Source: Minisyncoccota bacterium | GTDB lineage: Bacteria > Patescibacteriota > Minisyncoccia > Minisyncoccales > Minisyncoccaceae | Assembly: GCA_041657045.1 (NCBI GenBank) | Contig: JBBACM010000001.1 | Coordinates: forward strand, 13,259-77,258 | Direction of reading: 5' to 3' | DNA: 64,000 nt | Shown: piece by piece, positions 11,640 through 38,804 of the stretch | How the letters are laid out: each line of letters opens with the position of its first letter | Numbering within the stretch: position 1 is the stretch's first letter | Notes under the pieces: model-generated | What the model saw: only the letters and a program-made list of their open reading frames with translations | Told to the model about the DNA's origin: nothing | The model's database searches: none | Translations under genes and position numbers: made by a program

Positions 11640-11700
11640 TTGATTATAATTAACTTTTAATATATAATTATCTTAATGAATAAATTATCCAATAAATTTT

Positions 11701-12264: not shown

Positions 12265-12302
12265 TATAAGATTAAAAAGGTTAAAAAATAACCATTATTT
12301 TT

Positions 12303-12953: not shown

Positions 12954-12983
12954 ATAAGATACTACACGTAGATTGTTTTACTT

Positions 12984-14768: not shown

Positions 14769-14860
14769 TATAATATTAAATATAATAATTAATCCTTATT
14801 CACAAAGCATACTTGTCGGCTGGATAATCAAGTAGTATAATATTAAATATAATAATTAAT
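14734..14860 (+). repeat. Tandem direct duplication (2 x ~60 nt, period 67) covering the last 12 codons and stop of fakA plus the downstream AT-rich spacer
   Basis: CACAAAGCATACTTGTCGGCTGGATAATCAAGTAGTATAATATTAAATATAATAATTAAT occurs twice. Confidence 0.9.
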
Positions 14861-14880
14861 AATAAAAATAAATAAAAGAT

Positions 14881-15828: not shown

Positions 15829-15833
15829 TATAA

Positions 15834-17605: not shown

Positions 17606-17615
17606 TTGAAATAAA

Positions 17616-18287
17616 ATGAACATTAACTATCTTTTAATCGCTGCAGCTTCTTATCTAATAGGCTCAATCCCTTTTGCCCTTTTATACATAAAACTTCTAC
17701 TGAATAAAGACATTAGAAGTTTCGGCTCAAAAAATACTGGAGCACTCAATGCCTTAAGAATTGCCTCGCATGAAAAAGGAAGGGCGTGGGGAGTAATTTC
17801 ATTTTTAATAGTTTTTTTCTTTGATGCTTTTAAAGGTGCAATAGCTGTTATCCTGGCAACTAATTTAATGCCGGAGAACACAATACTCTCCATAACTATC
17901 GCAACATTCTTTGCTATCTTGGGACACAATTATTCAATAATTCTTAACTTTAAAGGAGGCAGGGGAGCGGCTACCTTGGGCGGGATATTATTATATCTCA
18001 ATTGGCAGGTATTCCTCGGCTCGGTTATTACCATCCTTTGTTTTATGATTCTCGCCGAAGCGTTAGCGGGAAGAAGAATTTCCAAAAAATTCTTTAAAAA
18101 AGCTGTTTCCGACCAAATAATAGGAAGATTAATCGGAGAAGCATATGCCGTGTGGTGGATATATCTTTTTGACCAGACACTATTTTATCCTGCTCTTTTC
18201 GGAACAATGTTGGTAATTTTTTCCCACAAAGACAGATTAACTGATCAAATTAAAGAGATAAAAAATAAAGCATACTTAAATGGATGA
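17616..18287 (+). CDS. Divergent PlsY-family membrane acyltransferase paralog
   Basis: Motifs GSKNTGALN and FKGGRGAAT; the third PlsY motif is degenerate. Confidence 0.55.
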   Translation: MNINYLLIAAASYLIGSIPFALLYIKLLLNKDIRSFGSKNTGALNALRIASHEKGRAWGVISFLIVFFFDAFKGAIAVILATNLMPENTILSITIATFFAILGHNYSIILNFKGGRGAATLGGILLYLNWQVFLGSVITILCFMILAEALAGRRISKKFFKKAVSDQIIGRLIGEAYAVWWIYLFDQTLFYPALFGTMLVIFSHKDRLTDQIKEIKNKAYLNG

Positions 18288-18933
18288 AGCTATCCTTCCT
18301 ATCTTTCTATTAATCGACGCCTATCTTTTAGGCTCCATTCCTTCCGGGTATTTGATAACCAAATACACAACCAATAAAAACCTGCTGGAAATAGGATGGA
18401 AAAAGAATTCCGGCTCAAATGTTTTTAAAAATGTCGGATTATGGCAGGGAGTATTCACTTTCCTCCTCGATGTAGCAAAAGGATTTCTTGCTGTCTATCT
18501 GGCCAGATATTTCGGTTTCTCCGAATTATTCCAGGTTTTCTGCGGTGTTTTAGCAGTAACCGGGCATAATTGGTCTATCTTCCTCGGATTAAAGGGAGGA
18601 AGAGGTTTAGCCGCCCTGGCAGGAGCACTATTAGTAATCTCTCCCTTAGTTTTAGTTATTTCCTTGATTCCTTTCGTCGTTTTTACTATAATTTGGACAG
18701 GTTCGGTGGGAACCCTTTTATCATTTTTAGCTGCTATTATTTTTTCCTTTTCTTTTAAAGGCTACGAAATGGCCGGATTACTAATGTTAATCTCCTTTAT
18801 CCCCGTGATAATCAAGAGATTGAGCCCGATTAAAGAACTGATAAATAACCCGAAACAAAAGGAGCTGATTGAAAACCGCCTTATTTTTGACCAAGATACT
18901 GTCCCACCAATCAGGCTTAAACTAAAAAAATAA
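18280..18933 (+). CDS. Divergent PlsY-family membrane protein paralog (third copy)
   Basis: LGSIPSGYL..., NSGSNVFKN, LKGGRGLAAL. More diverged than the other two. Confidence 0.45.
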   Translation: MDEAILPIFLLIDAYLLGSIPSGYLITKYTTNKNLLEIGWKKNSGSNVFKNVGLWQGVFTFLLDVAKGFLAVYLARYFGFSELFQVFCGVLAVTGHNWSIFLGLKGGRGLAALAGALLVISPLVLVISLIPFVVFTIIWTGSVGTLLSFLAAIIFSFSFKGYEMAGLLMLISFIPVIIKRLSPIKELINNPKQKELIENRLIFDQDTVPPIRLKLKK

Positions 18934-19076: not shown

Positions 19077-19469
19077 ATGCTTAGAACAAAGACAAAAAGA
19101 CTAATCTTTGCTTCCGTATTGTTTTTTTTGTTTATAAGCTTTATGCCTGCTTTTGCCGCCTTGGTTACCTGCGGCAACGAAGGTCAGCCAGCTTGTACTC
19201 TAGATAACATGTTCGAAACATTGGTTAATGTGATTAATTTTGTTCTGTACGACATTGTTCCTCCATTGGCCGCATTCGGATTCGCCATGGCCGCGGTCAC
19301 TATGATGACTTCTAACGGAGATCCTGGCAAGTTCAAGCAGGGCAAAGACGCTATGATTACCATCGGAATAGGATTAATAATAATCTATCTCGCCTGGTTT
19401 ATAGTAAGCAGCTTCATTGAATTCTTAGGAGGAAAAGAGTGGACATTACAGTTTTTCAACAAGGAGTAA
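19077..19469 (+). CDS. VirB2/TrbC-like pilin (T4SS-type pilin): signal peptide plus two hydrophobic helices separated by a charged GDPGKFKQGKD loop
   Basis: Signal peptide ending AFA|A, the characteristic helix-loop-helix topology, and two N-terminal Cys. Shares its core module with the pilin-fusion genes at 26.2-31.0 kb. Confidence 0.55.
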   Translation: MLRTKTKRLIFASVLFFLFISFMPAFAALVTCGNEGQPACTLDNMFETLVNVINFVLYDIVPPLAAFGFAMAAVTMMTSNGDPGKFKQGKDAMITIGIGLIIIYLAWFIVSSFIEFLGGKEWTLQFFNKE

Positions 19470-19575: not shown

Positions 19576-19842
19576 ATGTTAACAACAGAAGAAAAAACAA
19601 AAATTGTCAGCAAAAACAAGGTTCATGAAACGGATACCGGCTCAGCCGAAGTCCAAGTTGCCTTGTTAAGTGAAGAAATACAAAAACTCTTGGAGCATTT
19701 AAAAAAACAGAAAAAAGATGTGAGCTCAAAGAGGGGGCTGTTAAAAATGGTTTCGAAAAGAAGAAAGCTCTTGAAATTTCTTGAAAGAACAAACGAAAAT
19801 TCATACAAGGAGCTGACTAAGAAGATGGGATTAAAGGCATAA
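19576..19842 (+). CDS. rpsO: 30S ribosomal protein S15
   Basis: S15 family sequence; rpsO-pnp gene order. Confidence 0.9.
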   Translation: MLTTEEKTKIVSKNKVHETDTGSAEVQVALLSEEIQKLLEHLKKQKKDVSSKRGLLKMVSKRRKLLKFLERTNENSYKELTKKMGLKA

Positions 19843-22004: not shown

Positions 22005-23567
22005 ATGGAAGAACTTCTTTTAGACAAAGAACAAATTAGGACAATGAAAAAAGACATGCGGGAAGCCGAGGGGGTCATGGTTTATCCGGCAGAAAAAGAA
22101 CAAACAATTAACTTGTCTTTAGATATCGGTGACTCTATTGAAAAAAGCAGCCCCAATCTTGACATTAAAAAATCTAAGGCAGAAAAAAATAATCAGAAAC
22201 AAGAAAAGCTGCCACCAGATAATGAACTTATGATTATTAAAGATAAGGTTAATCTTGCAATCGAAAAATCGCCAAAAAATATTGACCCTGCCGTCGAGCA
22301 AGAAAAATTAAAAGCCGAAAATCTCGCCCGCGAACTGGCTCTTTTAAGTAACGAAAGTAAAGACATTATTAAAGAACAAGTCTTACAAGAAGGGTCAGGA
22401 AAATCTCCTATAATAGAAAAAATTGCTACTGAAGAAACTTATCAAGAGCCTGCTCCAAAGCCTGATTTAATCATTCCCGAACCTGCCCCTGAGGTAATCG
22501 AACCAAAAGAACCTCTCGTGGAAGAGCCTGCTCCAAAACCTGATTTAATCATTCCCGAACCTGCCCCTGAGGTAATCGAACCTAAAAAACCCCAAGAAGA
22601 ACTGCCTAGTGCATTAGAATTAGGGCTTGAAGATCCAGAAGAAAAAGAAATCCCGATGGCTAAAGATCTAGAGCTGGAAGAAAAAACCGAAAAACCAGCT
22701 ATTGAAAAAGAAGTGGAAGTAGTTGACGAAAATGAAGCTAAGTTGGAAAGGATAGCCGAACAGAGCCTTGAACTTGAAGAAAAGATGAGAAAAATAAAGG
22801 ATGAAAACGCTCCCTTCGAAAAAAGAAAAAAAGAAATAGAAGAAGAAATAAGTAATATTAAGAAAAAGCTTGATTTAGTCCTCGAAAGAAAAATAAAAAT
22901 AGACGAAATCAAAAAGACTATTGAAGAAAAAGAGGCTTTGGCTAAAACTCCTGAAGAAAAAAGGGCTATTGAAAAAGAAAGGTGGAGAACTGAAGACGAC
23001 AGGAATTCTATCGAAAAAGAAAAGGATGAAAAAGAAGACGAAATAAAATCATTAAGACTCCAGCTAAGAGAGTGCGATTTGAACGCAGAAAAAATAACAG
23101 CTGCCGAAAAAGAAATAGCTCAAGACCTTGAGATACTAAAAAGAGATAGAGATAAAATAATCCTCGGACAAACTAAACAGGATTTAGAAAAAAGACTCAA
23201 GCCTCTTGAAGATGAAATAGAAAATATAAAAAGGGGGATGTTCGAGAACACAAAAATGAAAGACAAGTTAGACAAGACCCTAAATGATGTGCAGCTTAAA
23301 GAAAAATCAACAGAAGAAGAAATAAAATTGCTTGAGAAAAGGCAAAATGAAACCAAAGATGAAGTAATTTTACGCGACATTGAAACCAGAAGAAGAAACA
23401 TAGAAGAAAACAGGAGACAAATGGAAAAAGAAAGGTGGGATATCGAAGATAGAACGGCAGACTTGGAAGAAAAAAGAAAAATAATAAAGAAAAATTACCA
23501 AGAAGTAGCCAGCCAGGCAAGACAAATAAAAGCCGACCTCGTAGAAATAGAAGAAAAACTCAAATAA
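22005..23567 (+). CDS. Glu/Lys-rich coiled-coil protein with a tandemly repeated Pro-rich segment (EPAPKPDLIIPEPAPEVIEPK, 2 copies)
   Basis: 59-nt units at 22446-22504 and 22524-22582 with a 78-nt period. The rest is predicted coiled coil. Confidence 0.5.
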   Translation: MEELLLDKEQIRTMKKDMREAEGVMVYPAEKEQTINLSLDIGDSIEKSSPNLDIKKSKAEKNNQKQEKLPPDNELMIIKDKVNLAIEKSPKNIDPAVEQEKLKAENLARELALLSNESKDIIKEQVLQEGSGKSPIIEKIATEETYQEPAPKPDLIIPEPAPEVIEPKEPLVEEPAPKPDLIIPEPAPEVIEPKKPQEELPSALELGLEDPEEKEIPMAKDLELEEKTEKPAIEKEVEVVDENEAKLERIAEQSLELEEKMRKIKDENAPFEKRKKEIEEEISNIKKKLDLVLERKIKIDEIKKTIEEKEALAKTPEEKRAIEKERWRTEDDRNSIEKEKDEKEDEIKSLRLQLRECDLNAEKITAAEKEIAQDLEILKRDRDKIILGQTKQDLEKRLKPLEDEIENIKRGMFENTKMKDKLDKTLNDVQLKEKSTEEEIKLLEKRQNETKDEVILRDIETRRRNIEENRRQMEKERWDIEDRTADLEEKRKIIKKNYQEVASQARQIKADLVEIEEKLK

Positions 23568-26210: not shown

Positions 26211-27251
26211 CTATTCTTCTCTGTATAGAGAAAAAGTCATATATGAAAAGGGCTTAATCGGACTTTTTTCACTTGCATTATAGATGTAGCTATACTTAAT
26301 CGTATTGATACAATTAGAAGCACTTCCAGTAAAAAACTGGCATTGGCCTAACGCATTCTTATCCTTATCCTTAAAAAGAATTGCCGTTCCCGGATTAACC
26401 TCAACAGACAAAACATCTCCGACGAAATCCTTGCAAGAATCTTTAATGTTTGTAAACTCCGACACTGAACTAATCGTACAAACGCTTGTTTTTTCTTCTT
26501 GTTTGCCATATTCATCACTTCTCTTCTTGCAGTTTATATTATTGTACAATTTAACAGCGGGGGAGCCGTCAGCCGTCTCAAAAACGATAATAGAAGAAAG
26601 GGTGTCTTTGCCTATCGGAGGATTATTTTCACCTGCGTTAGAAGCTCCAAGATTATCGCTATTGCTTAAAAGATATGAACAATTTCCTTCCATATCTCCT
26701 TCAGGAAAAAGAACTGCACCGTATCCATAATTTTCCCCGTTGACGAATTCTATCGACTTAACCTTCCTCTCAAAACCCTCATTTATCAAAGAAGCTTTTG
26801 ATGATTTTAAAACCAAGGAATCTCCGTCGTCCTTATAGAGATAAACTCCTGTTGGTTTAACTGTTTCGTATGTTTGGCTTGACTTTGGCTCTTTACTCAA
26901 ATCATCTATTTTTATAATCGCAAGTTCTGGATTTATAGTATTCAATATCATAAAAGAAGCTAAAAGTATGACTGTGCCCAAAAGAGTGTCTTGGATTTTC
27001 TTTTTTGCACCCTCTATTTTGGATGGATCACCTCTTGAATTAACATAATCAATGCCGGCAACTATAATCATTACCGTGGCCACAATCGTTCCGATGGCTA
27101 TGGTTAAATTGAAAAAATAGACGACGAAATCAGATGCGGTTGCATTTTGAGGAATGCCGGCAATAACCGGTATTTTAATTGCGGCATATGCAGGAAAAGA
27201 AACGATTAATCCTGCAACGACCGAAAAAACTATTTTTTTTATTTTATTCAT
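26211..27251 (-). CDS. Pilin-domain fusion protein A (346 aa): signal peptide, VirB2/TrbC-like two-helix module, Cys-containing ectodomain
   Basis: N-terminal module VVYFFNLTIAIG...IIVAGI...RGDPSKIEGAKKKI...LLG...LNTINPEL, shared with the two upstream paralogs and with the 19077 pilin. Confidence 0.55.
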   Translation of the reverse strand: MNKIKKIVFSVVAGLIVSFPAYAAIKIPVIAGIPQNATASDFVVYFFNLTIAIGTIVATVMIIVAGIDYVNSRGDPSKIEGAKKKIQDTLLGTVILLASFMILNTINPELAIIKIDDLSKEPKSSQTYETVKPTGVYLYKDDGDSLVLKSSKASLINEGFERKVKSIEFVNGENYGYGAVLFPEGDMEGNCSYLLSNSDNLGASNAGENNPPIGKDTLSSIIVFETADGSPAVKLYNNINCKKRSDEYGKQEEKTSVCTISSVSEFTNIKDSCKDFVGDVLSVEVNPGTAILFKDKDKNALGQCQFFTGSASNCINTIKYSYIYNASEKSPIKPFSYMTFSLYREE

Positions 27252-27252
27252 T

Positions 27253-28566
27253 TTATCTTTTTTCTACCGGAAACAAAATAAAAGACATCGGCTGGGTTTT
27301 CCCTGGGTCGTAAATCGCGGTCGGTAATTTACTCTGACAAATACCTCCTCCTTCTATAGAATTAATATCGTAATATACGCACTTGCCATTAGCAACGCCT
27401 ACTGCTGCACTGCTTAAAACTACACCGATGGGGCCGCTTATAGAAAGAGACATAATCGCATCGCCCGGATCCAATTTTTCAGTACAAGCTAAATAGCTAT
27501 CGTTATAAATATTATGATGTCCATAGCCCTTCAGGGTGCATTTTTTAACTTCAGCAGATGAATTACTGGTTGATTCAGCGCAGTCTGGAGCAGTATAAAG
27601 GGTAACAACTCCTACGTCCGGCAAATCGGGGACTGGTTGTCTTATAATTATCAAAGAAGAAAGTGTATTATTTTTAATAGGCGTGGGATAGTATCCACCA
27701 ACCCCGCTATTCATGTTAGGAACATTTTGAGCGAGGAAAGAACATGAACCGCTATAATTCGGATCGGTAAATACGATTGCTTGATAATTTATTTTTTCCT
27801 TGCTCTGGTCAGGATTTAATATCTTTATTGAACTAGTTGAATTATCAAAAGACTTTTCGGATAGATTATAAATACCGTCCTCCGTGTAAAGAGGGAAAGG
27901 CTTTGTGTTAATAGTATAATTTAATCCGTCATAAAGATATAGTCCGGCTTTTTTCCATAGGAAAAAGATTGATTTTGCTCCGGATATTTCTCCGCTGGTA
28001 CATCCAGCTTCGCAAGAAAACTCTTGCCGTGTCCCCGTAAAACCCTCTTCGGAATAAGTATAAACTGCCAAAAGAGAATCTGGTTGAAAGTTCCACTCAA
28101 GAGTACCTTGGATATTATATCCTATTTTTGACATCGTGTCGGTAATACAGGCCTGGCTTATTTCATTGCTACCCTCAAGCGGTATCCTCGTCACAATAAT
28201 GCCCTGAGAACATTTCAATTGAGTTATTTTAATGGTCTCCAATTCTGGATTAATTGTATTTAAAACGACATAAGAGCCGATAAGAACTGCTACTCCTAAA
28301 AGAGTATTTTTAATCTTGCTTTTAGCCGACTCTATTTTGCTTGGATTGCCCTCGGCGGTCATCCATTCTATTCCTGCCATTATCACAATAACAATGGCGA
28401 TAAAAGACCCGAAGGCAACAATCAGGTTGAAAAAATAAACAACAAATCCTGCGGCGGTTGCATCCTTCGGAAAACCGGCGAGCAAAGGTATGTCTGCCGC
28501 CATGGCTGGTAGAGCCGTTAATAATATTATTGCTGCAACAACCGATATCTTCGTTTTATTATTCAT
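27253..28566 (-). CDS. Pilin-domain fusion protein B (437 aa), same architecture
   Basis: VVYFFNLIVAFG...IMAGI...EGNPSKIESAKSKIKNTLLG...LNTINPEL, followed by a Cys-containing ~320-aa domain. Confidence 0.55.
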   Translation of the reverse strand: MNNKTKISVVAAIILLTALPAMAADIPLLAGFPKDATAAGFVVYFFNLIVAFGSFIAIVIVIMAGIEWMTAEGNPSKIESAKSKIKNTLLGVAVLIGSYVVLNTINPELETIKITQLKCSQGIIVTRIPLEGSNEISQACITDTMSKIGYNIQGTLEWNFQPDSLLAVYTYSEEGFTGTRQEFSCEAGCTSGEISGAKSIFFLWKKAGLYLYDGLNYTINTKPFPLYTEDGIYNLSEKSFDNSTSSIKILNPDQSKEKINYQAIVFTDPNYSGSCSFLAQNVPNMNSGVGGYYPTPIKNNTLSSLIIIRQPVPDLPDVGVVTLYTAPDCAESTSNSSAEVKKCTLKGYGHHNIYNDSYLACTEKLDPGDAIMSLSISGPIGVVLSSAAVGVANGKCVYYDINSIEGGGICQSKLPTAIYDPGKTQPMSFILFPVEKR

Positions 28567-28578
28567 ATTGATTACATT

Positions 28579-31047
28579 TTACTTACAACAATAATAATTG
28601 TCCATATATTCCTCAACATCCATCTGACATCCTGGATTTGTTCCGTCGCCGACACGATTAATATTCTGAAAACATTTGCTTCTTTGCTCTTTCGTCAAAT
28701 CTAAACTATTATAAGGATAACAATTTTGATATCCTTCATTTTTAGTATTAGGATAGGGAAAATCAGGAAGGATAACTAATTTGTCTAGGGTCACATGATT
28801 AATTCCTTCCAAACAATTAAATATTTGCGTTTGAGATTTATTTTCCTTATAAGACGAACCGTAGCCGGTAATACAAGAGTTCATCTTTCTTCTTGAATCA
28901 AGTAACATTTCTATTAAAACAAACCTATTTTTAATCGTGTTGCCTTCGGTAAGAGAGCTGTTGCATTCGACTTTCTTTTTGTTTTCTATAATTTCTTTAT
29001 TTTCTTCAATGCAAACCTCGTCATCTATGTCGCATATTTTTTCCTTCCTATCTGGTCTCATGTCTTCAGGACAGATAGTGTTAACAAGCTCAATCCCCGC
29101 AGCTGGATCAAATTCTCTGATTTCTTCAAGGCTGTCGACAGAAGATAATGCAAATAATCTTTTTTCTCTTTCTGCCCATCTCTGCAAGGCTCCTGCTTTG
29201 GCTAAATTAGAAATTCTTAAAGTTGCCTCTGCCTCATCTTTTGTGGAGTCATAGCAAGAATCATCTATTTCTCTTACTGCGTATATACTTTTAATTAAAT
29301 CGCAAAAACTCCTGTAGGGGCAAGCCCAATACTGTTCTCGTGGTAAAGGAAAACGAGGCATAGGATCTCCGTGCTCTATACAAAGGTCAGAACATCCAAT
29401 ATATGCACGAGAGTACTCAGGATAAGGATAATCTTCTGCCGCTTCTCCGGGATAACAGGTAGTATAGTAAATGCTCGGGCAAGGGCACGTACTGTTAGAA
29501 TTACATTGCGGACGGACACAGCAATTACTGCTCGCAAGCTTACAATTACTGCCATCGCAATTATTCGGTAATTCAGCGATGCTTAATCCTGAATTATAAA
29601 CTTCTTTAACTTCTTTAATTAAATCTTCTATTCTTTTTACCAATTCTTCTCCATATCGTTCGGTTTCATCGACCGTTTCTCCTATGGGTATGACTCCGGA
29701 ATATTTTTTATCATAGACACTACACGTGTCGTCTTTGCTCGCATCAACGGCTGTCTCTCTTTGTTTTTTATCGTTATATTCTTGACTAAAGTAGAATGTC
29801 GCAGGGTCTCCATCATACAAATATCTTTCTTGGCCGTTCACCATTTTACACATTCTTTCTGCTTCGTTTAAATCATATTTGACGCAAACTTCTATATTAT
29901 TATCATATCCTTTCTGTACACAATAATCATCGCAATATCTGGAAATATCATAATCTTCAAAAGGAGTCGATGCAAGGATAGATGAATTATCTTGATTTTG
30001 AAGGCTATGGAATTCAGCAATACTTAATCTTTCTCCAAACGGCCTTTTAGTGCTAAGTTCTACCTGCTTCAACTTATTTACTTGATTTGTAAAATAATCC
30101 TTAAAGCCGGACAGTCTTTCTGTCCCGTCTTTAAAGGTAACCATATTTGGATATTTAGGAGCATCTTCTTTTATCCATCCTTTTTCGTAGCAAATCTTTT
30201 CGGGATCGCTTCCGTCCATCAATTGCTTTATCTCTTCTCTTTTACAGTCTATTTGCTTTCTGTTGGGACAAGGATCGTAAGGATACTGTTCCAGCTCCGG
30301 TTCTCCTACAAGATTATTTCCAGGAGCCTCTGGACATCCCGTGTGTGAATGACCGCAAAGATTACAGTATGATTCCCCGCAAGTAGGACAAACACAAGTA
30401 CCTGTTGTCATTCCTATTCTTCCTAAAGGATTAGGAGGGAAGGGAGCGGTATAAACTCTAGAACATTCGCATTCCTTCATTAAAACATCTAATTCTTTTA
30501 TTAATCGGCTAAGTTCGACTTCGGCTTTTTTCCTGAGAGCTTCTTCGAGGTCCTTCATGCAATAAAAAATATCCCTATCGAGAATAATATCTTTTTCGTT
30601 TATTTGTCCGTCACTATTTTTATCAATAATATTTCCGTCTTCATTGTATTCGTAACATTCAAGTGCATTTTTGGTTGAAGAATTTCCGGATAGAATACTT
30701 TCTACCAATGTTCCTATTGGCAATTCTTGAAATGTTATTGTCTCTTTTACCTCTTTTTTTACTTCGGGAGTTAGAATGGGAATGTCTACATGAACTCCAA
30801 CCAGAGAAACATTTTTAAGAGCGACTAAATCAGGATTAATTGTTGTTAGAAGAACGTATGAAACAAGAAGAACAGCCAGCCCAAGCAGGGCACTAATTAT
30901 TTTCTTCTTTGCTTCCTGTTTAGCTGAAGGATTTCCAGATGAGCTCAAGATATTTATTCCGCTATAGGCAATAACGATAAAAGCGAGGACGGCTCCCATT
31001 GCCACACCGAGATTGAAAATATATATAATGTAATCGGCAAATGTCAT
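28579..31047 (-). CDS. Pilin-domain fusion protein C (822 aa): VirB2/TrbC-like module plus a very Cys-rich ~740-aa ectodomain. It has no signal peptide of its own.
   Basis: IIYIFNLGVAMG...IAYSGI...SGNPSAKQEAKKKI...LLG...LTTINPDL, followed by CxxC-rich repeats. Confidence 0.55.
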   Translation of the reverse strand: MTFADYIIYIFNLGVAMGAVLAFIVIAYSGINILSSSGNPSAKQEAKKKIISALLGLAVLLVSYVLLTTINPDLVALKNVSLVGVHVDIPILTPEVKKEVKETITFQELPIGTLVESILSGNSSTKNALECYEYNEDGNIIDKNSDGQINEKDIILDRDIFYCMKDLEEALRKKAEVELSRLIKELDVLMKECECSRVYTAPFPPNPLGRIGMTTGTCVCPTCGESYCNLCGHSHTGCPEAPGNNLVGEPELEQYPYDPCPNRKQIDCKREEIKQLMDGSDPEKICYEKGWIKEDAPKYPNMVTFKDGTERLSGFKDYFTNQVNKLKQVELSTKRPFGERLSIAEFHSLQNQDNSSILASTPFEDYDISRYCDDYCVQKGYDNNIEVCVKYDLNEAERMCKMVNGQERYLYDGDPATFYFSQEYNDKKQRETAVDASKDDTCSVYDKKYSGVIPIGETVDETERYGEELVKRIEDLIKEVKEVYNSGLSIAELPNNCDGSNCKLASSNCCVRPQCNSNSTCPCPSIYYTTCYPGEAAEDYPYPEYSRAYIGCSDLCIEHGDPMPRFPLPREQYWACPYRSFCDLIKSIYAVREIDDSCYDSTKDEAEATLRISNLAKAGALQRWAEREKRLFALSSVDSLEEIREFDPAAGIELVNTICPEDMRPDRKEKICDIDDEVCIEENKEIIENKKKVECNSSLTEGNTIKNRFVLIEMLLDSRRKMNSCITGYGSSYKENKSQTQIFNCLEGINHVTLDKLVILPDFPYPNTKNEGYQNCYPYNSLDLTKEQRSKCFQNINRVGDGTNPGCQMDVEEYMDNYYCCK

Positions 31048-31048
31048 T

Positions 31049-31384
31049 TTATTCTGTATCGATTAAATTAAACAAAACAGATAATGTCCAGAAGGGAACA
31101 ACTCCGACATAAGGAATTAATTCTCCAAAAGTAGGAATGGATATTTTTGTCGAATTTCCGGTAAATAATTTACTAAGCTCCTCTAATGCTCCTTTTCGCC
31201 CCCGAGCGTTTCTCGGCTTCTTGTTTCTTATAATCAGCCACATGTTTATAGTAGCAATTCCTATCATGTCTGTCATCCCAAAATCATCCCAACCCAAACA
31301 AAAGAGAACAATTCCAACTGCATCCAATCCTATTGCAAGGGGGAGCATACAAAAAACTTCTGGGGTAAATTTAAGTCCGAGCAT
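31049..31384 (-). CDS. Small membrane protein. Its C-terminus (IPTFGELIPY...SVLFNLIDTE) resembles the leader/first-helix region of the pilin-fusion paralogs; it may be a split-off N-terminus of the 822-aa gene.
   Basis: Manual alignment with the N-termini of 26211 and 27253. It abuts the 822-aa start with a 1-nt gap in a different frame. Confidence 0.4.
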   Translation of the reverse strand: MLGLKFTPEVFCMLPLAIGLDAVGIVLFCLGWDDFGMTDMIGIATINMWLIIRNKKPRNARGRKGALEELSKLFTGNSTKISIPTFGELIPYVGVVPFWTLSVLFNLIDTE

Positions 31385-31479
31385 ATTAATTTAATTATAC
31401 TTTATTGGCCTTGAGACATCAACCCTGCCAAAAAAAAGTTTACAATTTATTAGAAAGTATTGTATAATATTTATAATAT

Positions 31480-33429
31480 ATGAAAATAACAAATTTTTAT
31501 AAAATACTATTAATAGTTGCAGTGGCATTTATTATATTCCCGGCAGCTAACACGTACGCAGCTGATAATGTTGCTGTAATAGCAAACCCTGGATCTTGCG
31601 ATCTTCTTCTGCACCCTCTCGAATGTGTTTCAAGCGGAATAATAAACACTATTATTAATATCGCAGGAATTTTAGCGCCCGCCGCATTAAGGATAGGAGA
31701 ATATTTCCTTAACGCTGCCATTAGCGGTGATGTTTTAGGGGCTGGCTTCACTCCGGACAGCAACGAATATATCGCTACTGGATGGGGAATAGTCAGAAAT
31801 TTGGCCAATGCGGCGCTGGTAATAGGATTAGTTGTTATAGCTGTAGGTATAATTTTAGGATATCAAGAGAATCAAGCTAAAAAAATTCTACTTAATTTTA
31901 TAATTATCGCACTCTTAATTAACTTTACTCCGGTAATCTGCGGCTTTATTATAGATGGCGCAAACATACTTACAAAATCGATGATGACGGGAGGAATAGA
32001 CGATAGTTATTCAAAATCCATATCAAATCTATTCGTTATAATAGGGAATATGAAGGGTGGTTGGATTGATCAGCTTGCTCTCACGATAGTAGTAACATTT
32101 TTTTCATTGTTCGCAACAGTCATATATCTTTTATACGCCCTTCTTTTTTTCGGAAGAATTGTTATTCTTTGGATATTGGTCATTGTTTCTCCAATAGCCT
32201 TTGCCACAAAAGTATTTCCTCAATCAAAATACATAAGGAACTTTTTCCCGAGCGTAACTTATTGGGATGACTGGTGGGAAAGCTTTATCCAATGGTGTGT
32301 TATAGGAATTCCGGCAGGAATGTCGATATACCTTTCAAATACGATGATTGCAAAAATAGCAAGCACATCTAATTCTACAGCAGCAACCGAAGCAAATATA
32401 TTTGGAATATTAATCGGGTATTCGATTCCATTCATCTTCCTGCTTGCCGGATTCTTTATCTCTATTTCTTCAGGCGGAAAAGTTGGAACATTTGTGGGTG
32501 GAGTAGCAACTGGTGCATGGGCCGTTTCAGGAGGAAGGGCGGCAAATTGGGGTAGAGAAAAAATAAAAGCAGGCGGGGAATGGGTAGAGGGAAGAACTGC
32601 TGCTACCGGATCTTATATAAAAGAAGGTGCAGCGGGAATTGCTGGTGTTATAGCAATGGATAAAACAGATCAACCAAGACCACTGTCTGTATTTAATAAA
32701 GAAGATAGAGAAGCAGGAAGACAAGCAATATCGGGATGGAAAAAAAGAGTCGTTCAAGACACTCCTCTTAAATATTTAACCAACCCTCCAGCCTTAGAAA
32801 AAGACAAGGAGGCTGCTATGGAAAATTACAACAAAAATTGGAATCGTTATAATCAAAACGATAGAGATAAAATTGAAAAAATGCTTATCGATAAAGACAC
32901 TTCTTTGTTCTTGAAAGGAGGTATTGATAAAGATAAAACTCCCGAAGAAAATTCTAGAGAATACCAGAGAAGATTGGCTTCTGTTGGGCTACACGGGGGA
33001 GAAAAAACAAAATTTGAAGCTTATCTCCACGCCTCCGGAAATACTCAATTTGCCGGTATGGGAGGAATACAAGCGGTAAATGAATGGGCAACGAAAAATA
33101 AAATTGATGCTCCTAAAAAACTAAGATCAATGAGCGCAAAAGACGCTAGAGAAAAAATAGGTGCTGATGCTATAAGACAAAATCCAGAAATTCTTCGAAA
33201 TATGGGAGAAAAAGCAGCATTTAATATCTTACAGCAAGGATCAGTAGAGCAAAGAAAGGCGATTAAAGAAAAAACTATTGGTAGAGACAATGCGTTATTT
33301 ACAAAATACATGCAAGATCAGCTGAATATATCAACCGACAGGACATTAACCGAAGACCAAAGAGAAGAGGCAGAGATGAACTATAATAGATGTTATAAAA
33401 TAGCAGAAGAAGTACATATTAATACTTAA
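31480..33429 (+). CDS. VirB6/TrbL-like polytopic membrane protein (signal peptide, about 7 TM helices, Trp-rich loop, hydrophilic C-terminal ~300 aa)
   Basis: Topology and locus context. The N-terminal ADNVAVIANPGSCDLL...GIINTIINIAG segment echoes the pilin leader region. Confidence 0.45.
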   Translation: MKITNFYKILLIVAVAFIIFPAANTYAADNVAVIANPGSCDLLLHPLECVSSGIINTIINIAGILAPAALRIGEYFLNAAISGDVLGAGFTPDSNEYIATGWGIVRNLANAALVIGLVVIAVGIILGYQENQAKKILLNFIIIALLINFTPVICGFIIDGANILTKSMMTGGIDDSYSKSISNLFVIIGNMKGGWIDQLALTIVVTFFSLFATVIYLLYALLFFGRIVILWILVIVSPIAFATKVFPQSKYIRNFFPSVTYWDDWWESFIQWCVIGIPAGMSIYLSNTMIAKIASTSNSTAATEANIFGILIGYSIPFIFLLAGFFISISSGGKVGTFVGGVATGAWAVSGGRAANWGREKIKAGGEWVEGRTAATGSYIKEGAAGIAGVIAMDKTDQPRPLSVFNKEDREAGRQAISGWKKRVVQDTPLKYLTNPPALEKDKEAAMENYNKNWNRYNQNDRDKIEKMLIDKDTSLFLKGGIDKDKTPEENSREYQRRLASVGLHGGEKTKFEAYLHASGNTQFAGMGGIQAVNEWATKNKIDAPKKLRSMSAKDAREKIGADAIRQNPEILRNMGEKAAFNILQQGSVEQRKAIKEKTIGRDNALFTKYMQDQLNISTDRTLTEDQREEAEMNYNRCYKIAEEVHINT

Positions 33430-33432: not shown

Positions 33433-33912
33433 ATGCCATTAACCAAACAAACAATTTCTTTCATAGAGGAAATAATGATTAAATATGGCCTTGAGGATAA
33501 GCTTATAGAAAATGACGCTCTATTAAAAAATAAAATATCGGGAGTAGAAGATCTTTCTGAAAGGGCTGTATTAAAATTACTTTTCGGGGAAAAAATAAAA
33601 GAACAAGAGATGGCTGGCAAATCATTGGAAGATATTTTGCCCTCAATGAGGCTTAAAAGAATATTAGAAAAATTAGTAGACAAGAAAATATCATACAAAG
33701 ATTTACCAGGATTAATCAAAAGTGGATTAAGTACCGACCAATCTATGACCGATGAAATAGTGAAATTAATAGAAAACAACACTGAACTTCACGCCGCCAT
33801 AAACAAGCCTGTTGAAAATAAAATTGTAGAAGAAGAAATAACTGAGGAAGAGTCGGCGCAAAAAATAATTACAGAAAATAAAAAAAGTATAGGAAACGAA
33901 TTGTTGAAATAA
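33433..33912 (+). CDS. Hypothetical soluble acidic protein, translationally coupled to the VirB6-like gene
   Basis: ORF only. Confidence 0.35.
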   Translation: MPLTKQTISFIEEIMIKYGLEDKLIENDALLKNKISGVEDLSERAVLKLLFGEKIKEQEMAGKSLEDILPSMRLKRILEKLVDKKISYKDLPGLIKSGLSTDQSMTDEIVKLIENNTELHAAINKPVENKIVEEEITEEESAQKIITENKKSIGNELLK

Positions 33913-33927: not shown

Positions 33928-35331
33928 TCATTCATCATTTTTTGGTTTGAATGGTATCCCAGCTTTCTTAAGAGCTTCTCTTGTTTTGTCGGTAATATTT
34001 TTTTTATTACTTTCACCGTCTTCCACAGAAGCTTTTTCGTTTTCTTTCTTTTGGATAGGACTATTGTTAAACGTCTTTTGAAATACTGCGGCAGCGCTCA
34101 AAAGTTCGTTCCCTCCTGTTCCTTTTCCCTCGGTGAAAATTCTAACTCCAGTCCCTTGTCTTATGGCCATGCCGTCCAAGACATCTCTTCTGCATTTATT
34201 GTATATAGGGCCGTAAATCCTTTTGAATTCTTCTGGATTTTTTATTAATGAAGCAAACTCTTCTGGAGTAGTCGCTGTTCTTCTTTGGAATAAAGCATCG
34301 GTCGCTGACATTTCTGTCACTAGCCGTTCCTGATTCATCTGCGCCTGAATGGCGACAGCTTTCTTCTCGAATTCTTGCCTTATTGGCTCATTGGCCGCAT
34401 CGATGATTTCCTTTGGGACGGTCAGCTTAGATATTTGTATTTTTATAATATATATTCCGTACTTTTCTAAACATATTCGGATGGTAGACTTTCCTTTATC
34501 ATCTCCATATTTTTTCTGTTCTTCAAATTTTTTATAAAAATGCATTGCTAATTCTTCATCTTCTTTCTGGAGATCGTTATAGTCTGAATTCCTTATTTCC
34601 TCAAATATTACATTATATACTTCTGATATAAAAGCCTTATACCAATCCTTAATCAAGAATTGAGAAAGAGGCGGGTTAAAAGGCTGTCCCAGTATCCCCA
34701 TATTGAAACTGATTGGAACATTATCCTTACTGTAAATATCTTTTATCTTCAGACCATAATTATATGGAGCAACAACCCAATCCCACATTACATCTTCTTC
34801 CTTTGTAACCTCTTGGGTAGTAGGATTATATTTCTCCCATCTTAAAATACCCTCAAAAGGCTCTTCAAATAATCCAAGGAGTTTAAAAAACCTCAAGTTA
34901 TGGATTACAGGAATTATCCTCGTTGTTTTTATTTTTTCCCCTGGGTCTATCCCAAATTTTTCAGGAATACTTTCTCCCTCCAGGGGAACGATCCATCCTT
35001 TTTCGGTGAGAGTATGACCGTCTAACTGTAGGTCTGATCGAGTATATCCCTCGCCCTCCATAATCAAGAGTAGGTGGCTTTGTCGAACAAAGTAACCAAA
35101 AATTCTTACTGGAGCCAAGATAAAATAAGTCACAAAAAAAATAATTACTGGAAGTAGAATAAATGAAGCTATAGCAGCAACAAATGGATTTTTTAAAAAA
35201 ATCCACAATAAGAAGAAAGCAAGCAAGAATGATACAATAATCATTGTAAATCCTTTTTTCCTGGAATTTCTTCTTTGTTCTTTTGTCTGTTCCAACTTTT
35301 TTTCAATACTTAACCTTTCCATGATTTTCAC
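33928..35331 (-). CDS. Membrane-anchored protein with an SPFH/band-7-like region
   Basis: N-terminal TM helices. C-terminal ...YIIKIQISKLTVPKEIIDAANEPIRQEFEKKAVAIQAQM... resembles the stomatin/HflC helical segment. Confidence 0.4.
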   Translation of the reverse strand: MKIMERLSIEKKLEQTKEQRRNSRKKGFTMIIVSFLLAFFLLWIFLKNPFVAAIASFILLPVIIFFVTYFILAPVRIFGYFVRQSHLLLIMEGEGYTRSDLQLDGHTLTEKGWIVPLEGESIPEKFGIDPGEKIKTTRIIPVIHNLRFFKLLGLFEEPFEGILRWEKYNPTTQEVTKEEDVMWDWVVAPYNYGLKIKDIYSKDNVPISFNMGILGQPFNPPLSQFLIKDWYKAFISEVYNVIFEEIRNSDYNDLQKEDEELAMHFYKKFEEQKKYGDDKGKSTIRICLEKYGIYIIKIQISKLTVPKEIIDAANEPIRQEFEKKAVAIQAQMNQERLVTEMSATDALFQRRTATTPEEFASLIKNPEEFKRIYGPIYNKCRRDVLDGMAIRQGTGVRIFTEGKGTGGNELLSAAAVFQKTFNNSPIQKKENEKASVEDGESNKKNITDKTREALKKAGIPFKPKNDE

Positions 35332-35502: not shown

Positions 35503-35958
35503 ATGGAAGAACAAAAAGACTCCAAAGATTTATTTTGGAAAACATACGAAACACTGCCGGACAATATTAAAGAAGCTCTTTTCTCAGAAGAGAATTTTAA
35601 TATTGTTTCTGAAATATGCGAAAAAAACGGAATAAGCGATGAAGAAATAAAATCTCAACTAATGAAGTACATAGGAAAAACATTAATGGGATTGCTGCCG
35701 ATAAAAGAATTTTCTATAATCCTTGAATTAGAATTAAATCTTGAAACCGAAAAAGCAAGAGATATAAGCTGGGACATCGACCGAAGAATTTTCAGCCATT
35801 TAAGAATTTCTTTAAACAAACTTTATTCTCCAAGTGTTGCAGAGAATAAAGAAGTAAGCGATAATACTAAGAAAGAGGGGGTACCAGAAACTAAAGAAGT
35901 GGTAAAGCCTAAAGTATTCGTTAATCCAAAAGACCCTTACAAAGAACCGCTAATCTAA
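35503..35958 (+). CDS. Hypothetical protein, first gene of the VirB3/VirB4 operon
   Basis: ORF with an upstream extended -10 (TGGTAAAAT at about 35478). Confidence 0.35.
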   Translation: MEEQKDSKDLFWKTYETLPDNIKEALFSEENFNIVSEICEKNGISDEEIKSQLMKYIGKTLMGLLPIKEFSIILELELNLETEKARDISWDIDRRIFSHLRISLNKLYSPSVAENKEVSDNTKKEGVPETKEVVKPKVFVNPKDPYKEPLI

Positions 35959-35960: not shown

Positions 35961-36386
35961 ATGCAATACAGAGTTCCTCAATTCATAGAGCACGAGGCTA
36001 AAATATTGGGCCCGCTCAATATAAAGCAAAGTTTGATGGTCGGAGGATCTCTCGCCGCCTGTTTTTTTCTTTACTTTATGGTCGGCCAGACAAACTTTTT
36101 TCTTTTTCTCATAATCGCTGCTTTTATAACCGGAGGAGCCTTGGCCATATCCTTCACAAAAATAGAAGGGCTGGAGCTTCCAACAGTAATTAAGAACTGG
36201 ATAAATTATAACGTTAATCCAAAAATATTCCTCTGGAGAAGAAAGCAATCTCCTGTATACTTATCAACCGAAAGAATAAGAAGAGAGATAGTCGCAAAAG
36301 AAAAAAAATCGCCCCTTAAAGTAAAGCAGGAAGGAAAAATAGGGGATTTAATTAAAAGAATTGATTTTGAAAGAAAAGGAGAATAA
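35961..36386 (+). CDS. VirB3/PrgI-like small membrane protein (two adjacent TM helices)
   Basis: About 25-aa hydrophilic N-terminus, then two hydrophobic helices. Sits immediately upstream of VirB4. Confidence 0.4.
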   Translation: MQYRVPQFIEHEAKILGPLNIKQSLMVGGSLAACFFLYFMVGQTNFFLFLIIAAFITGGALAISFTKIEGLELPTVIKNWINYNVNPKIFLWRRKQSPVYLSTERIRREIVAKEKKSPLKVKQEGKIGDLIKRIDFERKGE

Positions 36387-36388: not shown

Positions 36389-37024
36389 ATGGTAAATGTC
36401 CCGTCACAACAATTTATGCCCGTGGAACAAATAAGAGAGGGCGTAATGGTAATGAAAGATAAATCATTAAAATCTGTTCTTTTGGTGTCTTCGCTAAACT
36501 TCGCTTTGAAGTCTGAAGATGAACAGATGGCTATTATTTATCAATTTCAAAACTTCTTAAATTCTCTTGATTTCAGCTGCCAAATTATCGTAAATTCAAG
36601 AAAGGTGAACATAACAGGATATATTGATAAAATAAAAGACTTAGAAAATAAACAAAAGAACGAACTTTTAAAAATACAAACAGCTGAATACAGAACCTTC
36701 ATTGAAGAAATAGTTGCCGGCGGAAGCATCATGAGTAAGAACTTCTACATTGTTGTCCCTTACTTTCCGATGACCGAATTAGCGAACATCACCGGAATCG
36801 GACCAAAAGAAGATAAAAATAATTTGACTGAAAAAAAATTCCAAACAGGCAAATACCAATTATTACAAAGGATGGAATATGTTTCTTTAGGAATAAGAAG
36901 GTGCGGATTAAAATCGGCCGCGCTCGGCTCTGAAGAATTGATTGAATTACTATGGGGGTTGCATCACCCGAAGCAGGCCGAATTGGGATATTACCCTGAT
37001 TTGCCTCCGGAAGTTATAATGTAA
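36389..37024 (+). CDS. VirB4/TrbE N-terminal domain, encoded as a separate ORF
   Basis: The EQIREGVMVMKDKSLKSVLLVSSLNF...SEDE... pattern is typical of the VirB4 N-terminus. Combined length with the next ORF is about 800 aa. Confidence 0.45.
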   Translation: MVNVPSQQFMPVEQIREGVMVMKDKSLKSVLLVSSLNFALKSEDEQMAIIYQFQNFLNSLDFSCQIIVNSRKVNITGYIDKIKDLENKQKNELLKIQTAEYRTFIEEIVAGGSIMSKNFYIVVPYFPMTELANITGIGPKEDKNNLTEKKFQTGKYQLLQRMEYVSLGIRRCGLKSAALGSEELIELLWGLHHPKQAELGYYPDLPPEVIM

Positions 37025-37028: not shown

Positions 37029-38804
37029 ATGAGCTTATTCGGAAAAAAACCAAAACAAGAAAAATTCTTAGAAAAAGAGATGACGACGGCTCTGGATATT
37101 ATCGCACCCGCTTCAATTGAAGTAAACCAGAACTATGTCCAGATGGAAGAAAAATTAGCTAAAACTTACTTTGTTTTTTCCTATCCAAGATATTTAACTA
37201 CCGGTTGGCTTTCTCCGATTATTAATATGGATATTCCCTTAGATATTTCTTTCTTTTTCCATCCGATTGAAACAGGAAGCATTTTAAGACAATTGAGAAA
37301 AAGCGTTACCGAAGTTCAGGCGGAAATTATGGAAAGAGAAGAAAAGGGTCTTATCAGAGACCCTGCCTTGGAAACGGCCTATCAAGACCTGGAAGACTTA
37401 AGAAGTAGACTACAAACAGCTCAGGAAAAAATGTTCAAGTTTGGACTATATATTACGATATATGCGGATAGCGCAAAAGAATTAGAAACAATCGAAACAA
37501 CGTTAAGGTCAATCCTTGAGTCAAGATTAATTTACATTAAACCGGCATTATACCAGCAAAAAGAAGGCTTGATTTCTTCTTTCCCTTATGGAAGCGATTT
37601 GTTGCAAATACACAACACCTTAAACACAACTCCTTTATCGAGTATTTTCCCATTTATTTCTTTTGATTTAAGTTCAAACGAGGGGATACTCTACGGGATA
37701 AACAAACACAACAACTCTTTGGTTCTATTTGACCGTTTCAGCATGGAAAACGCCAATATGGTAATATTTGCCAAGTCTGGCTCCGGTAAATCATATGCGG
37801 TCAAATTAGAGATATTAAGGTCCCTTATGATGGGAACCGAGTGTATAATTCTCGACCCTGAAAACGAATACAAAACATTGTCAGAGGCAGTGGATGGCTC
37901 ATTCTTTAAAATATCTTTGAGCTCGGATAGCCACATCAATCCTTTTGACTTGCCTGAACCGAGAGAAGACGAAACCCCGGAAGATGTTTTAAGATCGAAC
38001 ATAATCAACTTAGTCGGATTGATGAGGATAATGCTTGGAGGATTAAGCCCGGAAGAAGATGCTATTATGGACAGAGCGCTTTCCGAAACATATGCCGCTA
38101 AAGACATTACTGCCAACTCAGACCCGAAGGCCTGGGGCACCAGCGTTCCCATCATGTCTGATCTGGAATCTGTTTTAGACACTATGGATGGAGCAGAGTC
38201 CTTAGTTGAAAGGTTGAGAAAATTCACCAAAGGAACGTTCGCTTCTTTCTTTAATCAAAAGTCAAATATTTCAATGGATAAATCTCTTGTTGTTTTTGGC
38301 ATCAGAGACATGGAAGACGAATTAAGACCTATGGCTATGTTTATAATCATGAGATATATATGGAATACGGCCAGGGCTGAATTGAAAAAAAGAATTCTGG
38401 TAATTGATGAAGCCTGGTGGATGATGAAAACCGACGATGGAGCTTCTTTCTTGTTCGGCATCTGTAAAAGAGCGAGAAAATACTGGCTTGGAGTTACAAC
38501 CATTACCCAGGATGTTTCCGACTTTATGCGTTCCGAATATGGAAAACCTATTATTACAAACTCTTCAATTCAATTACTATTAAAGCAAAGCCCGGCAACG
38601 ATTGATTTAATCCAACAGACGTTTACCTTGACCGAACAAGAAAAATTCCTCCTGCTCGAAACTCCGGTAGGGGAAGGCATTTTCTTCGCTGGACAAAAAC
38701 ACGTTGCTATCAGGATAGTAGCCTCATACACCGAGGACCAGATAATAACTACCAGTCCGGAAGAAATAATGAAAATAAAAAAAGCAAAAGAAAACTTGCT
38801 ATAA
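37029..38804 (+). CDS. VirB4/TraC-family conjugation-type ATPase (C-terminal two thirds)
   Basis: Walker A FAKSGSGKSYA, Walker B ILVIDEAWWMM, and a CagE/TrbE/VirB4-like region (FVFSYPRYLTTGW...). Confidence 0.65.
   Translation: MSLFGKKPKQEKFLEKEMTTALDIIAPASIEVNQNYVQMEEKLAKTYFVFSYPRYLTTGWLSPIINMDIPLDISFFFHPIETGSILRQLRKSVTEVQAEIMEREEKGLIRDPALETAYQDLEDLRSRLQTAQEKMFKFGLYITIYADSAKELETIETTLRSILESRLIYIKPALYQQKEGLISSFPYGSDLLQIHNTLNTTPLSSIFPFISFDLSSNEGILYGINKHNNSLVLFDRFSMENANMVIFAKSGSGKSYAVKLEILRSLMMGTECIILDPENEYKTLSEAVDGSFFKISLSSDSHINPFDLPEPREDETPEDVLRSNIINLVGLMRIMLGGLSPEEDAIMDRALSETYAAKDITANSDPKAWGTSVPIMSDLESVLDTMDGAESLVERLRKFTKGTFASFFNQKSNISMDKSLVVFGIRDMEDELRPMAMFIIMRYIWNTARAELKKRILVIDEAWWMMKTDDGASFLFGICKRARKYWLGVTTITQDVSDFMRSEYGKPIITNSSIQLLLKQSPATIDLIQQTFTLTEQEKFLLLETPVGEGIFFAGQKHVAIRIVASYTEDQIITTSPEEIMKIKKAKENLL

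Follow-up and report, generated by a model that had tools for sequence, protein, structure and literature searches.

Three tandem genes in a Patescibacterial type IV secretion locus encode predicted VirB2-like pilin modules joined to large ectodomains

Can a pilin of the VirB2 type carry a large extracellular domain, and what would such a protein do in a type IV secretion system (T4SS)? This question is raised by three adjacent minus-strand genes in a 64,000-nucleotide (nt) stretch of a Minisyncoccota bacterium genome (assembly GCA_041657045.1, contig JBBACM010000001.1, positions 13,259 to 77,258; hereafter, the window). Judging by its gene content, the window belongs to the core chromosome in a metagenome-assembled genome (MAG) of Paceibacteria; it encompasses the housekeeping genes dnaA, dnaN, rnpA, yidC, jag, pnp, rpsO, ksgA and others, and both the operon containing the trio and a set of T4SS genes lie close to dnaA. 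The original prediction, which was made from the sequence letters, described the products of the three genes, 346, 437 and 822 amino acids (aa) long, as VirB2/TrbC-like two-helix modules fused to long cysteine-rich ectodomains. The three open reading frames (ORFs) and their N-terminal modules are as follows.

26211-27251, minus strand: 346-aa candidate modular pilin (ORF)
27253-28566, minus strand: 437-aa candidate modular pilin (ORF)
28579-31047, minus strand: 822-aa candidate modular pilin (ORF)
26898-27140, minus strand: predicted pilin module of the 346-aa protein, residues 38-118 (...GDPSK...LNTINPEL)
28216-28458, minus strand: predicted pilin module of the 437-aa protein, residues 37-117 (...GNPSK...LNTINPEL)
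30808-31047, minus strand: predicted pilin module of the 822-aa protein, residues 1-80 (end TTINPDL)

The genes are separated by gaps of 1 nt (346- and 437-aa genes) and 12 nt (437- and 822-aa genes). The ORF coordinates, an alignment and a hidden Markov model (HMM) of the module all agree on three tandem ORFs with a common N-terminal module of about 80 aa, with pairwise identities of 46-57% and 29 invariant columns that include YxFNL, G(N/D)PS, AKxKI and TINPxL; the GNPSK/GDPSK and INPEL/INPDL motifs are located where they had been placed initially. When the module HMM was compared to all six-frame ORFs of the window, the trio was retrieved at E values of 1e-40 to 1e-45, and a single additional ORF was detected, the same stand-alone protein in which this core had been noticed originally:

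19077-19469, plus strand: 130-aa stand-alone TrbC/VirB2-like candidate pilin (PF18895, E 4e-10; TrbC, 29.5 bits, cut-off 27.9)

Given that the HMM finds exactly the trio and the 130-aa ORF, the likeness among the modules is not due to chance.

The assignment of the module to the VirB2/TrbC-like pilin superfamily is supported by several profile comparisons. The 346-aa protein matches PF18895 (T4SS_pilin) with E 2.6e-7 and 31.0 bits, above the 26.6 cut-off, and the 437-aa (E 1.2e-4, 22.5 bits) and 822-aa (E 2.6e-5, 24.6 bits) proteins score just under it. At the family level, 38 of the 43 members of the 822-aa family match PF18895 in a direct scan, and for the 437-aa family, precomputed PF18895 annotation is present on 26 of 36 among the matches listed. 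Comparison of the trio-module profile with a profile of nine short stand-alone pilins (all nine matching PF18895 and two matching TrbC) using hhalign gave a probability of 99.9% and E 7e-32. The NCBIfam search of the trio produced weak matches only, to the model NF045849, a "pilin-like conjugal transfer protein" of Mycoplasma integrative and conjugative elements.

The AlphaFold (AF2) models of the 437-aa and 822-aa proteins, built on family alignments, contain helices at residues 38-69 and 75-105, and 3-35 and 40-70, respectively, and according to the hydropathy and charge analysis, the loops between the helices contain 4-5 Lys/Arg vs 1-3 Asp/Glu. Thus, as expected of a pilin, the modules comprise two hydrophobic helices connected by a short, positively charged loop. 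The hairpin is also the most conserved region of these proteins, with 61% identity in the 822-aa family (33-49% in the ectodomain) and 68% in the 437-aa family (38-48% in the ectodomain and 43% in the signal peptide), which points to constraint beyond what a mere membrane anchor would need. In size, at 346, 437 and 822 aa, the trio proteins depart from the characterised T4SS pilins (about 7-12 kDa when mature). Among the T4SS pilins characterised so far, to our knowledge, none is more than a small peptide, and adhesion is as a rule the task of other proteins.

These observations bear on the possibility that the hairpin is a generic signal-anchor of ordinary surface proteins unrelated to the T4SS, or else, that the ORFs are products of gene fusion or assembly artefacts, which we consider highly improbable. 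Two of the three PF18895 scores, indeed, fall just short of the cut-off, and helical hairpins are structurally generic. Nevertheless, a generic anchor is contradicted by the profile-profile match to pilins, by the conservation of the hairpin in the 437-aa and 822-aa families, and by the linkage to T4SS genes that is retained across related loci (see below). An artefact is ruled out by the full-length homologues found in many independent assemblies (NCBI, JGI, ENA and Logan) and by the conservation of the trio; the extensions are genuine rather than merged by mis-assembly. Specifically, 35 homologues (364-474 aa) were found for the 437-aa protein, with a query coverage of 86% or more in most cases, and this protein is 100% identical to the NCBI entry "MAG: pilin [Candidatus Paceibacterota bacterium]"; for the 822-aa protein, there are 42 homologues, mostly full-length, with 31-55% identity. 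Some of the homologues of the trio proteins are already labelled "pilin" by NCBI. Only three homologues lack the module, and all three look N-terminally truncated.

The original prediction assigned a signal peptide to each of the three proteins. Signal-peptide-like N-termini are discernible in the sequences of the 346-aa and 437-aa proteins (...PAYA/AI and ...PAMA/AD), and the 822-aa protein has none, because its stop-to-stop frame includes just 5 open codons upstream of the ATG and its close orthologues, likewise, begin at helix 1; more distant homologues possess a signal peptide. The claim that all three ectodomains are cysteine-rich also held in part. With 42 Cys in the 822-aa protein, and 10 and 6 in the other two, only the former is truly Cys-rich; all the counts are even, and the cysteines are mostly conserved, with about 36 of the 42 kept in at least 80% of the homologues of the 822-aa protein. 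The conserved cysteines, their even numbers and the crystallin fold described next are indicators of an extracellular location of the ectodomains.

The 437-aa protein consists of a putative signal peptide, the hairpin (38-105), a short linker and an ectodomain (119-437) of about three beta-rich segments. In its AF2 model (predicted local distance difference test score, pLDDT, 80.7), a disordered linker (109-116) precedes an all-beta ectodomain modelled with pLDDT of about 90, in which fold comparison revealed a double Greek-key beta-sandwich, that is, the beta-gamma-crystallin fold. The characteristic Y/F-x-x-x-x-Y/F-x-G signature is found in YSEEGFTG (G178 present in 35 of 37 sequences) and FTDPNYSG (F266, and G273 in all 37), and the crystallin-signature serines S246, S303, S304 and S373 are present in 36-37 of the 37 sequences of the 437-aa family. 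The Ca-site motif N/D-N/D-x-x-S/T-S is recognisable by sequence as DNSTSS and NNTLSS in the 437-aa protein and as KDTLSS in the 346-aa protein; of the 37 sequences, 21-34 retain the N/D positions and just 16 have S at position five of the first motif. Hence, by its model, the 437-aa protein contains predicted beta-gamma-crystallin domains with a largely conserved putative Ca-site motif. The 346-aa and 437-aa proteins are paralogues (36% identical from end to end, with Cys residues and the TLSS motif in common), the former lacking the first ectodomain segment of the latter. Sequence searches yielded less: Pfam Crystall models gave no match among the window proteins at E up to 0.1, no internal repeats were detectable by sequence in the crystallin-type ectodomain, and searching the PDB with the 822-aa-family and 437/346-aa-family profiles retrieved nothing meaningful. 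The 822-aa protein is organised differently, with the hairpin (1-74) followed by a 24-residue disordered linker (75-98) and the Cys-rich ectodomain (100-822); its AF2 model (pLDDT 82.8; predicted template modelling score, pTM, 0.78) shows long helices at 160-190, 305-332 and 455-496 along with Cys-rich beta elements, which together make up a large and apparently novel domain. Pfam detected nothing in the ectodomains of the trio, nor beyond the pilin module in the 43 members of the 822-aa family.

The arrangement reaches far beyond this genome. A module profile search covering 1.84 billion cluster representatives identified a family of 33,162 representatives with E values of 0.001 or lower, 4,957 of which reached 1e-10 or better; we took a detailed look at the 143 best new representatives, a sample biased to close relatives of the query module. 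Single-module proteins account for 74 of the 143, and 66 of these 74 extend for at least 100 aa past the module (median 267 aa, maximum 1693 aa). PF18895 matches 65 of these 66 long proteins and the number of Cys is even in 57 of the 66 extensions; in Pfam searches, 65 of the extensions had no match and one matched Crystall_3. This module is found joined to highly diverse ectodomains, and, from the sequences sampled, the combination of a pilin module with an extension appears to be common, not rare, in metagenomic data. In a structure-universe preprint, PF18895 dominates the freshwater-specific structure clusters, as would fit many different ectodomains on one module. The remaining 69 of the 143 representatives carry 2-17 tandem pilin modules in one polypeptide. 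Such "polypilins" may be polyprotein precursors or concatenated pilins; the polypilin P0086 (L005:950-4393), encoded on a contig with 52% GC, is an 11-module ORF that stays uninterrupted whether read with genetic code 11, 4 or 25.

The gene neighbourhood of the trio is that of a T4SS.

31049-31384, minus strand: small membrane protein of 111 aa, encoded by the leading gene of the operon (ORF, synteny)
31385-31479, between divergent genes: intergenic region with promoter-like sites both ways (consensus matches)
31480-33429, plus strand: 649-aa polytopic membrane protein (homologues with precomputed PF19590, synteny)
35961-36386, plus strand: PrgI/VirB3-like protein (PF12666, E 1.7e-5; synteny)
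36389-37024, plus strand: TrsD-like protein, counterpart of the N-terminal part of VirB4 (NCBIfam VirB4_plasma, CD1110 and TrsD models)
37029-38804, plus strand: VirB4-family ATPase (NF045971, E 6.5e-109, 365 bits, cut-off 325)

The operon starts with the 111-aa gene, which ends one base before the 822-aa start, continues with the genes for the 822-, 437- and 346-aa proteins, in this order, and is divergent from the 649-aa gene. Consensus matches to promoters occur on both strands of the intergenic region (plus, TTTACA-18-TATAAT, 31439-31468; minus, TTGATG-17-TATAAT, 31422-31394), and the sites fit divergent promoters, with their number in the promoter/terminator scan not above that in shuffled controls. 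The 649-aa protein is a probable VirB6/TrbL-like channel subunit, given its homologues with PF19590, which we take to be a TrbL/VirB6-like family, and the position of its gene, the same as that of the VirB6-like SEML1_0013 of S. epibionticum. The VirB4, TrsD and PrgI genes lie 5-8 kb from the trio, the VirB6-like gene being adjacent and divergent, and the ATPase additionally matches the TraG P-loop domain (E 3.5e-27). VirB4 is split, with the 211-aa TrsD-like protein corresponding to the N-terminal part of the models and the 591-aa ATPase to the remainder, in agreement with the published description of the Patescibacterial T4SS. Also inside the locus are an SPFH/Band7 protein (33928-35331, minus strand), syntenic in most related loci, and two mostly syntenic plus-strand ORFs without a family match, of 159 aa (33433-33912) and 151 aa (35503-35958); these three may be unrecognised T4SS components.

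A scan of species-representative genomes yielded 26 related loci, five of them cut by a contig end. In 24 of the 26, the 111-aa gene immediately precedes the large fusion, and the trio is arranged in the order large-medium-small in 20 of the 21 loci that reach past the second gene, the exception (L030) having two pilin-module genes only. The lengths of the encoded proteins fall within 736-1200 (large), 428-491 (medium) and 343-465 aa (small), and the 111-aa, VirB6-like, SPFH, PrgI, TrsD and VirB4 genes, along with the two small ORFs, are syntenic in the related loci. In L029 and L030, the two loci whose arrangement diverges most, virB4 is followed directly, on the same strand, by the large fusion. 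The trio and the preceding 111-aa gene constitute a conserved operon of the T4SS locus. Seven loci (L011, L012, L018, L022, L025, L029 and L031) contain a Paceibacteria-type operon in bins labelled Pacearchaeota archaeon, Bacillales or Saccharibacteria, which are probably mislabelled or contaminated MAGs. The 130-aa protein, the only short pilin in the window, is encoded apart from the operon, beside rpsO and pnp, with an S15-like ORF (19576-19842, plus strand) coming after it. A pilin gene is found beside rpsO also in S. epibionticum (SEML1_0024, non-essential) and in locus L003; the linkage is thus common to distantly related classes of Patescibacteria.

The pilin membership of the module, as we see it, draws on sequence profiles together with this gene context, with the fold playing no part. 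The identification as a VirB2/TrbC-like two-helix module stands on the PF18895 matches, the family-level counts and the profile-profile alignment, and the same evidence, combined with hairpin conservation and T4SS linkage, answers the objection that a generic signal-anchor might have been mistaken for a pilin.

The 111-aa protein has no Pfam match and no PDB match, a sequence search with the family profile included. The residues E9, D21, D34, G36, W49, R53 and P91 are invariant in its family. The idea that it is a degenerate pilin was rejected (hhalign probability 0.2%). A role dedicated to assembly or processing is conceivable for this protein. Processing was also raised by the original prediction, which proposed the conserved INPEL as a cleavage site. 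The INPxL motif lies just past the region covered by the Pfam model, where helix 2 has its outer end, and is equally conserved in the short stand-alone pilins, which stop 1-14 residues after it. Being shared with the short pilins, the motif is not specific to the fusions, and nothing marks it as a site of cleavage; INPxL is the usual end of this pilin subfamily and a part of the pilin module.

We therefore regard it as unlikely that the trio proteins are pro-proteins cut just past helix 2, near INPxL, such that a small pilin is left behind and the ectodomain is released, to be secreted or become wall-associated. Such a scheme would have a precedent in the documented C-terminal cleavage right after the last helix, whereby TrbC loses 27 residues to the TraF peptidase and TrhA loses 5 (PMC12037004), and it would be in line with the strong conservation of INPxL and the short stretch after it, with the disordered linker that follows the motif in the AF2 models, and with the presence of a co-transcribed, conserved 111-aa membrane protein with invariant acidic residues. 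Apart from the presence of INPxL in pilins that end shortly after it, however, no TraF/LepB-like (S26) peptidase was matched among the T4SS-locus genes scanned, and making an 80-kDa domain in order to discard its anchor would be unusual, even if possible.

How does the trio compare with what has been described in Patescibacteria? Tandem arrays of 2-11 VirB2-like pilin genes, with the T4SS near dnaA, have been reported (PMC12102498), and in S. epibionticum, the pilin series is essential and divergent from the VirB6-like gene (PMC10633639; reviewed in PMC12857230). In the S. epibionticum study, the array genes with lengths given measure 312-417 nt, and in the other array members, the module is near the C-terminal end, at most at residue 180 (PMC10633639). 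The main texts, and the supplement figure legends of PMC12102498, mention no large C-terminal domains on Patescibacterial pilins, and the legends do not refer to the length of the pilins either. We found no characterised example of such an arrangement in the literature, in keeping with the initial remark to that effect, the papers describing small VirB2-like pilin arrays only. The CPR (candidate phyla radiation) "Pam" pilus (bioRxiv 10.64898/2026.03.03.709456) is unrelated, being an Ig-fold donor-strand system. What is known already, then, are the small tandem arrays and the placement of the T4SS near dnaA; what appears to be new are the large modular ectodomains on VirB2-like pilins of Patescibacteria, widespread and yet not found described or characterised.

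The interpretation that we favour, holding it with about half of our confidence, is that the trio proteins are modular VirB2-family (PF18895) pilins of a chromosomal, origin-proximal T4SS, in which they would serve as minor or terminal filament subunits. Under this interpretation, the hairpin would insert such that the basic loop is cytoplasmic and the C-terminal domain is outside, and the VirB4/VirB6 machinery would treat the trio hairpins like any VirB2 pilin. In solved VirB2-type pili (C5 symmetry, a rise of about 12 Å and a diameter of 90 Å), the positively charged loop points into the lumen and the two termini are together (PMC12037004), and consequently, the C-terminal domain would project from the outer surface. 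By our own estimate, this geometry allows about 700 Å2 of outer surface per subunit, which makes an 80-kDa domain impossible at full occupancy and the crystallin proteins borderline. Because the ectodomains are so bulky, the trio proteins would be low-copy or terminal subunits, that is, a tip or priming complex, or else sparse decorations, on a short T4SS filament, presenting host-binding or spacer domains at the surface of the host cell; a short pilin, for example the 130-aa protein, would then form the filament body, if there is one. By analogy, such a role would resemble those of modular and minor type IV pilins and of VirB5-type tip proteins. The operon occupies the position that the essential short-pilin array has in S. 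epibionticum, divergent from the VirB6-like gene. A more ambitious version, which we entertain tentatively and with distinctly less than even confidence, is that the VirB2 hairpin is a portable module with which the T4SS displays many extracellular domains on its filament, the trio being the host-contacting tip or priming complex.

Several observations weigh against filament subunits. No T4SS pilus has been seen in Patescibacteria (PMC12857230, PMC11665869), and in the literature we found no PF18895 protein shown to polymerise. The sole candidate for the major pilin is the more TrbC-like 130-aa protein, the counterpart of which is non-essential in S. epibionticum. In the fold search with the hairpin, the only suggestive match, the Aeropyrum conjugation pilus 8dfu, was not significant (Foldseek E 8) and, helical hairpins being generic, does not establish specific kinship with solved pilins; a PDB sequence search with the short-pilin profile gave no link to any solved pilin either. 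The PDB fold searches with the 822-aa ectodomain returned no informative match and no functional clue. Beta-gamma-crystallin domains are generic Ca-dependent structural modules. Finally, the trio is conserved 1:1:1 and is not hypervariable, a pattern that suits a fixed structural component no less than an adhesin.

This last point leads to a different explanation, which we find rather doubtful, namely, that the trio proteins are fixed, non-polymerising parts of the T4SS, with the hairpins docked to VirB6/VirB3/VirB4 and the ectodomains building a wall-spanning or host-contacting conduit, in place of the VirB5/VirB8/VirB9/VirB10-type parts that this monoderm system lacks. The strict orthology and the conserved lengths across species representatives are what such an apparatus would be expected to show, and rigid spacers stabilised by Ca are what crystallin domains typically provide. 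In Patescibacteria, VirB8 frequently escapes detection, and it has been suggested that a completely different protein may take its role (PMC12102498). Furthermore, a short pilin of the YxFN...INPxL subfamily within 6 kb of the trio was found in none of the 26 loci, which favours fixed parts and is a further difficulty for a filament. Conversely, the module is homologous to free-standing pilins, the basic loop included, and elsewhere it is attached to very diverse ectodomains, more like a display scaffold; also, by our own estimate, ectodomains of 230-320 aa on linkers of 8-10 residues would barely span the cell wall.

The role of the Patescibacterial T4SS has been called "completely unknown" (PMC11665869), and yet the system is widespread, located near the replication origin and essential for epibiotic growth in the one species tested. 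If the trio proteins are filament subunits as we favour, proteins of this type would be obvious candidates for CPR host recognition, and the extensions would represent a rich, untapped set of surface domains, mostly unannotated and of the disulfide type. Under the more ambitious version, a monoderm would possess a VirB2-type pilus with built-in adhesins, akin to the tip complexes that minor pilins form in type II secretion systems and type IV pili, and the trio would supply the first concrete host-recognition candidates for the T4SS that is essential in Saccharibacteria. The conserved trio is a defined target for structural work and metaproteomics.

Several other genes in the window are of note. 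The protein encoded at 14881-15828 (plus strand) combines an N_methyl type IV pilin signal with a ConA-like lectin domain, Laminin_G_3; it is a modular type IV pilin, a parallel to modular T4SS pilins. A lipid-scavenging cluster (11040-18933, plus strand) immediately upstream of the 130-aa pilin gene encodes three PlsY paralogues, a FakA-like kinase (with a DegV match as well), two DegV proteins and a CDP-archaeol-synthase-like protein; one could speculate that the cluster is tied to the pilin, VirB2-type pili holding stoichiometric phospholipid. A 1645-aa protein with four DUF2341 domains (583-5520, minus strand; E 2e-96) is probably another large surface protein. A 520-aa protein without a Pfam match (22005-23567, plus strand) is extremely Glu/Lys-rich and contains a duplicated segment (EPAPKPDLIIPEPAPEVIEPK...); in loci L001-L003, ORFs of 464-511 aa, also without a Pfam match, occupy the position of this ORF, beside pnp.

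The trio can be compared with several known systems. The closest are the VirB2-like arrays of Patescibacteria, which are alike in belonging to PF18895, in forming tandem genes in a chromosomal MPF-FATA-like (mating-pair formation) T4SS locus near dnaA, in being divergent from a VirB6-like gene and in the separate pilin beside rpsO (Wang et al. 2023, PMC10633639; Quinonero-Coronel et al. 2025, PMC12102498). They differ in that, here, each pilin carries a predicted folded ectodomain of 230-750 aa, and in that the arrays consist of variable small paralogues whereas the trio is a conserved orthologous set. The canonical conjugative pilins VirB2, TrbC, TraA and TrhA (PF04956 and relatives) share with the trio a signal peptide (a signal-peptide-like N-terminus in the 346-aa and 437-aa proteins, none in the 822-aa protein), the two hydrophobic helices with a short basic loop and the grouping of the genes with VirB4, VirB3 and VirB6; they are, however, about 7 kDa when mature, with a short removed C-terminal tail at most, and the trio proteins exceed this size by a factor of 5-12. 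Microbial beta-gamma-crystallins (Protein S, spherulin 3a, clostrillin and the Flavobacterium protein 3hzb) have the fold predicted for the 437-aa ectodomain, which is here fused to a pilin hairpin and differs in having neither a Pfam Crystall match nor sequence-detectable repeats. VirB5/TraC tip proteins and adhesins of Gram-positive T4SSs, such as PrgB, are alike in the proposed role, target-cell contact at the distal end of the T4SS, but have no sequence or fold similarity to the trio, and VirB5 is not built on a VirB2 hairpin; a PrgB-like adhesin was not detected in Patescibacteria (PMC12102498), which leaves the target-contact role open. Among type IV pili, modular and minor pilins are represented by S. 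sanguinis PilB and PilC, the GspK-type tip pilins and R64 PilV. In these, as proposed for the trio, the part that polymerises is joined to a second, functional or bulky, module, which the filament displays or is capped by; the pilin folds and the assembly machineries are unrelated, with a single N-terminal helix and PilB/PilC in type IV pili, and a helical hairpin and VirB4/VirB6 in the T4SS.

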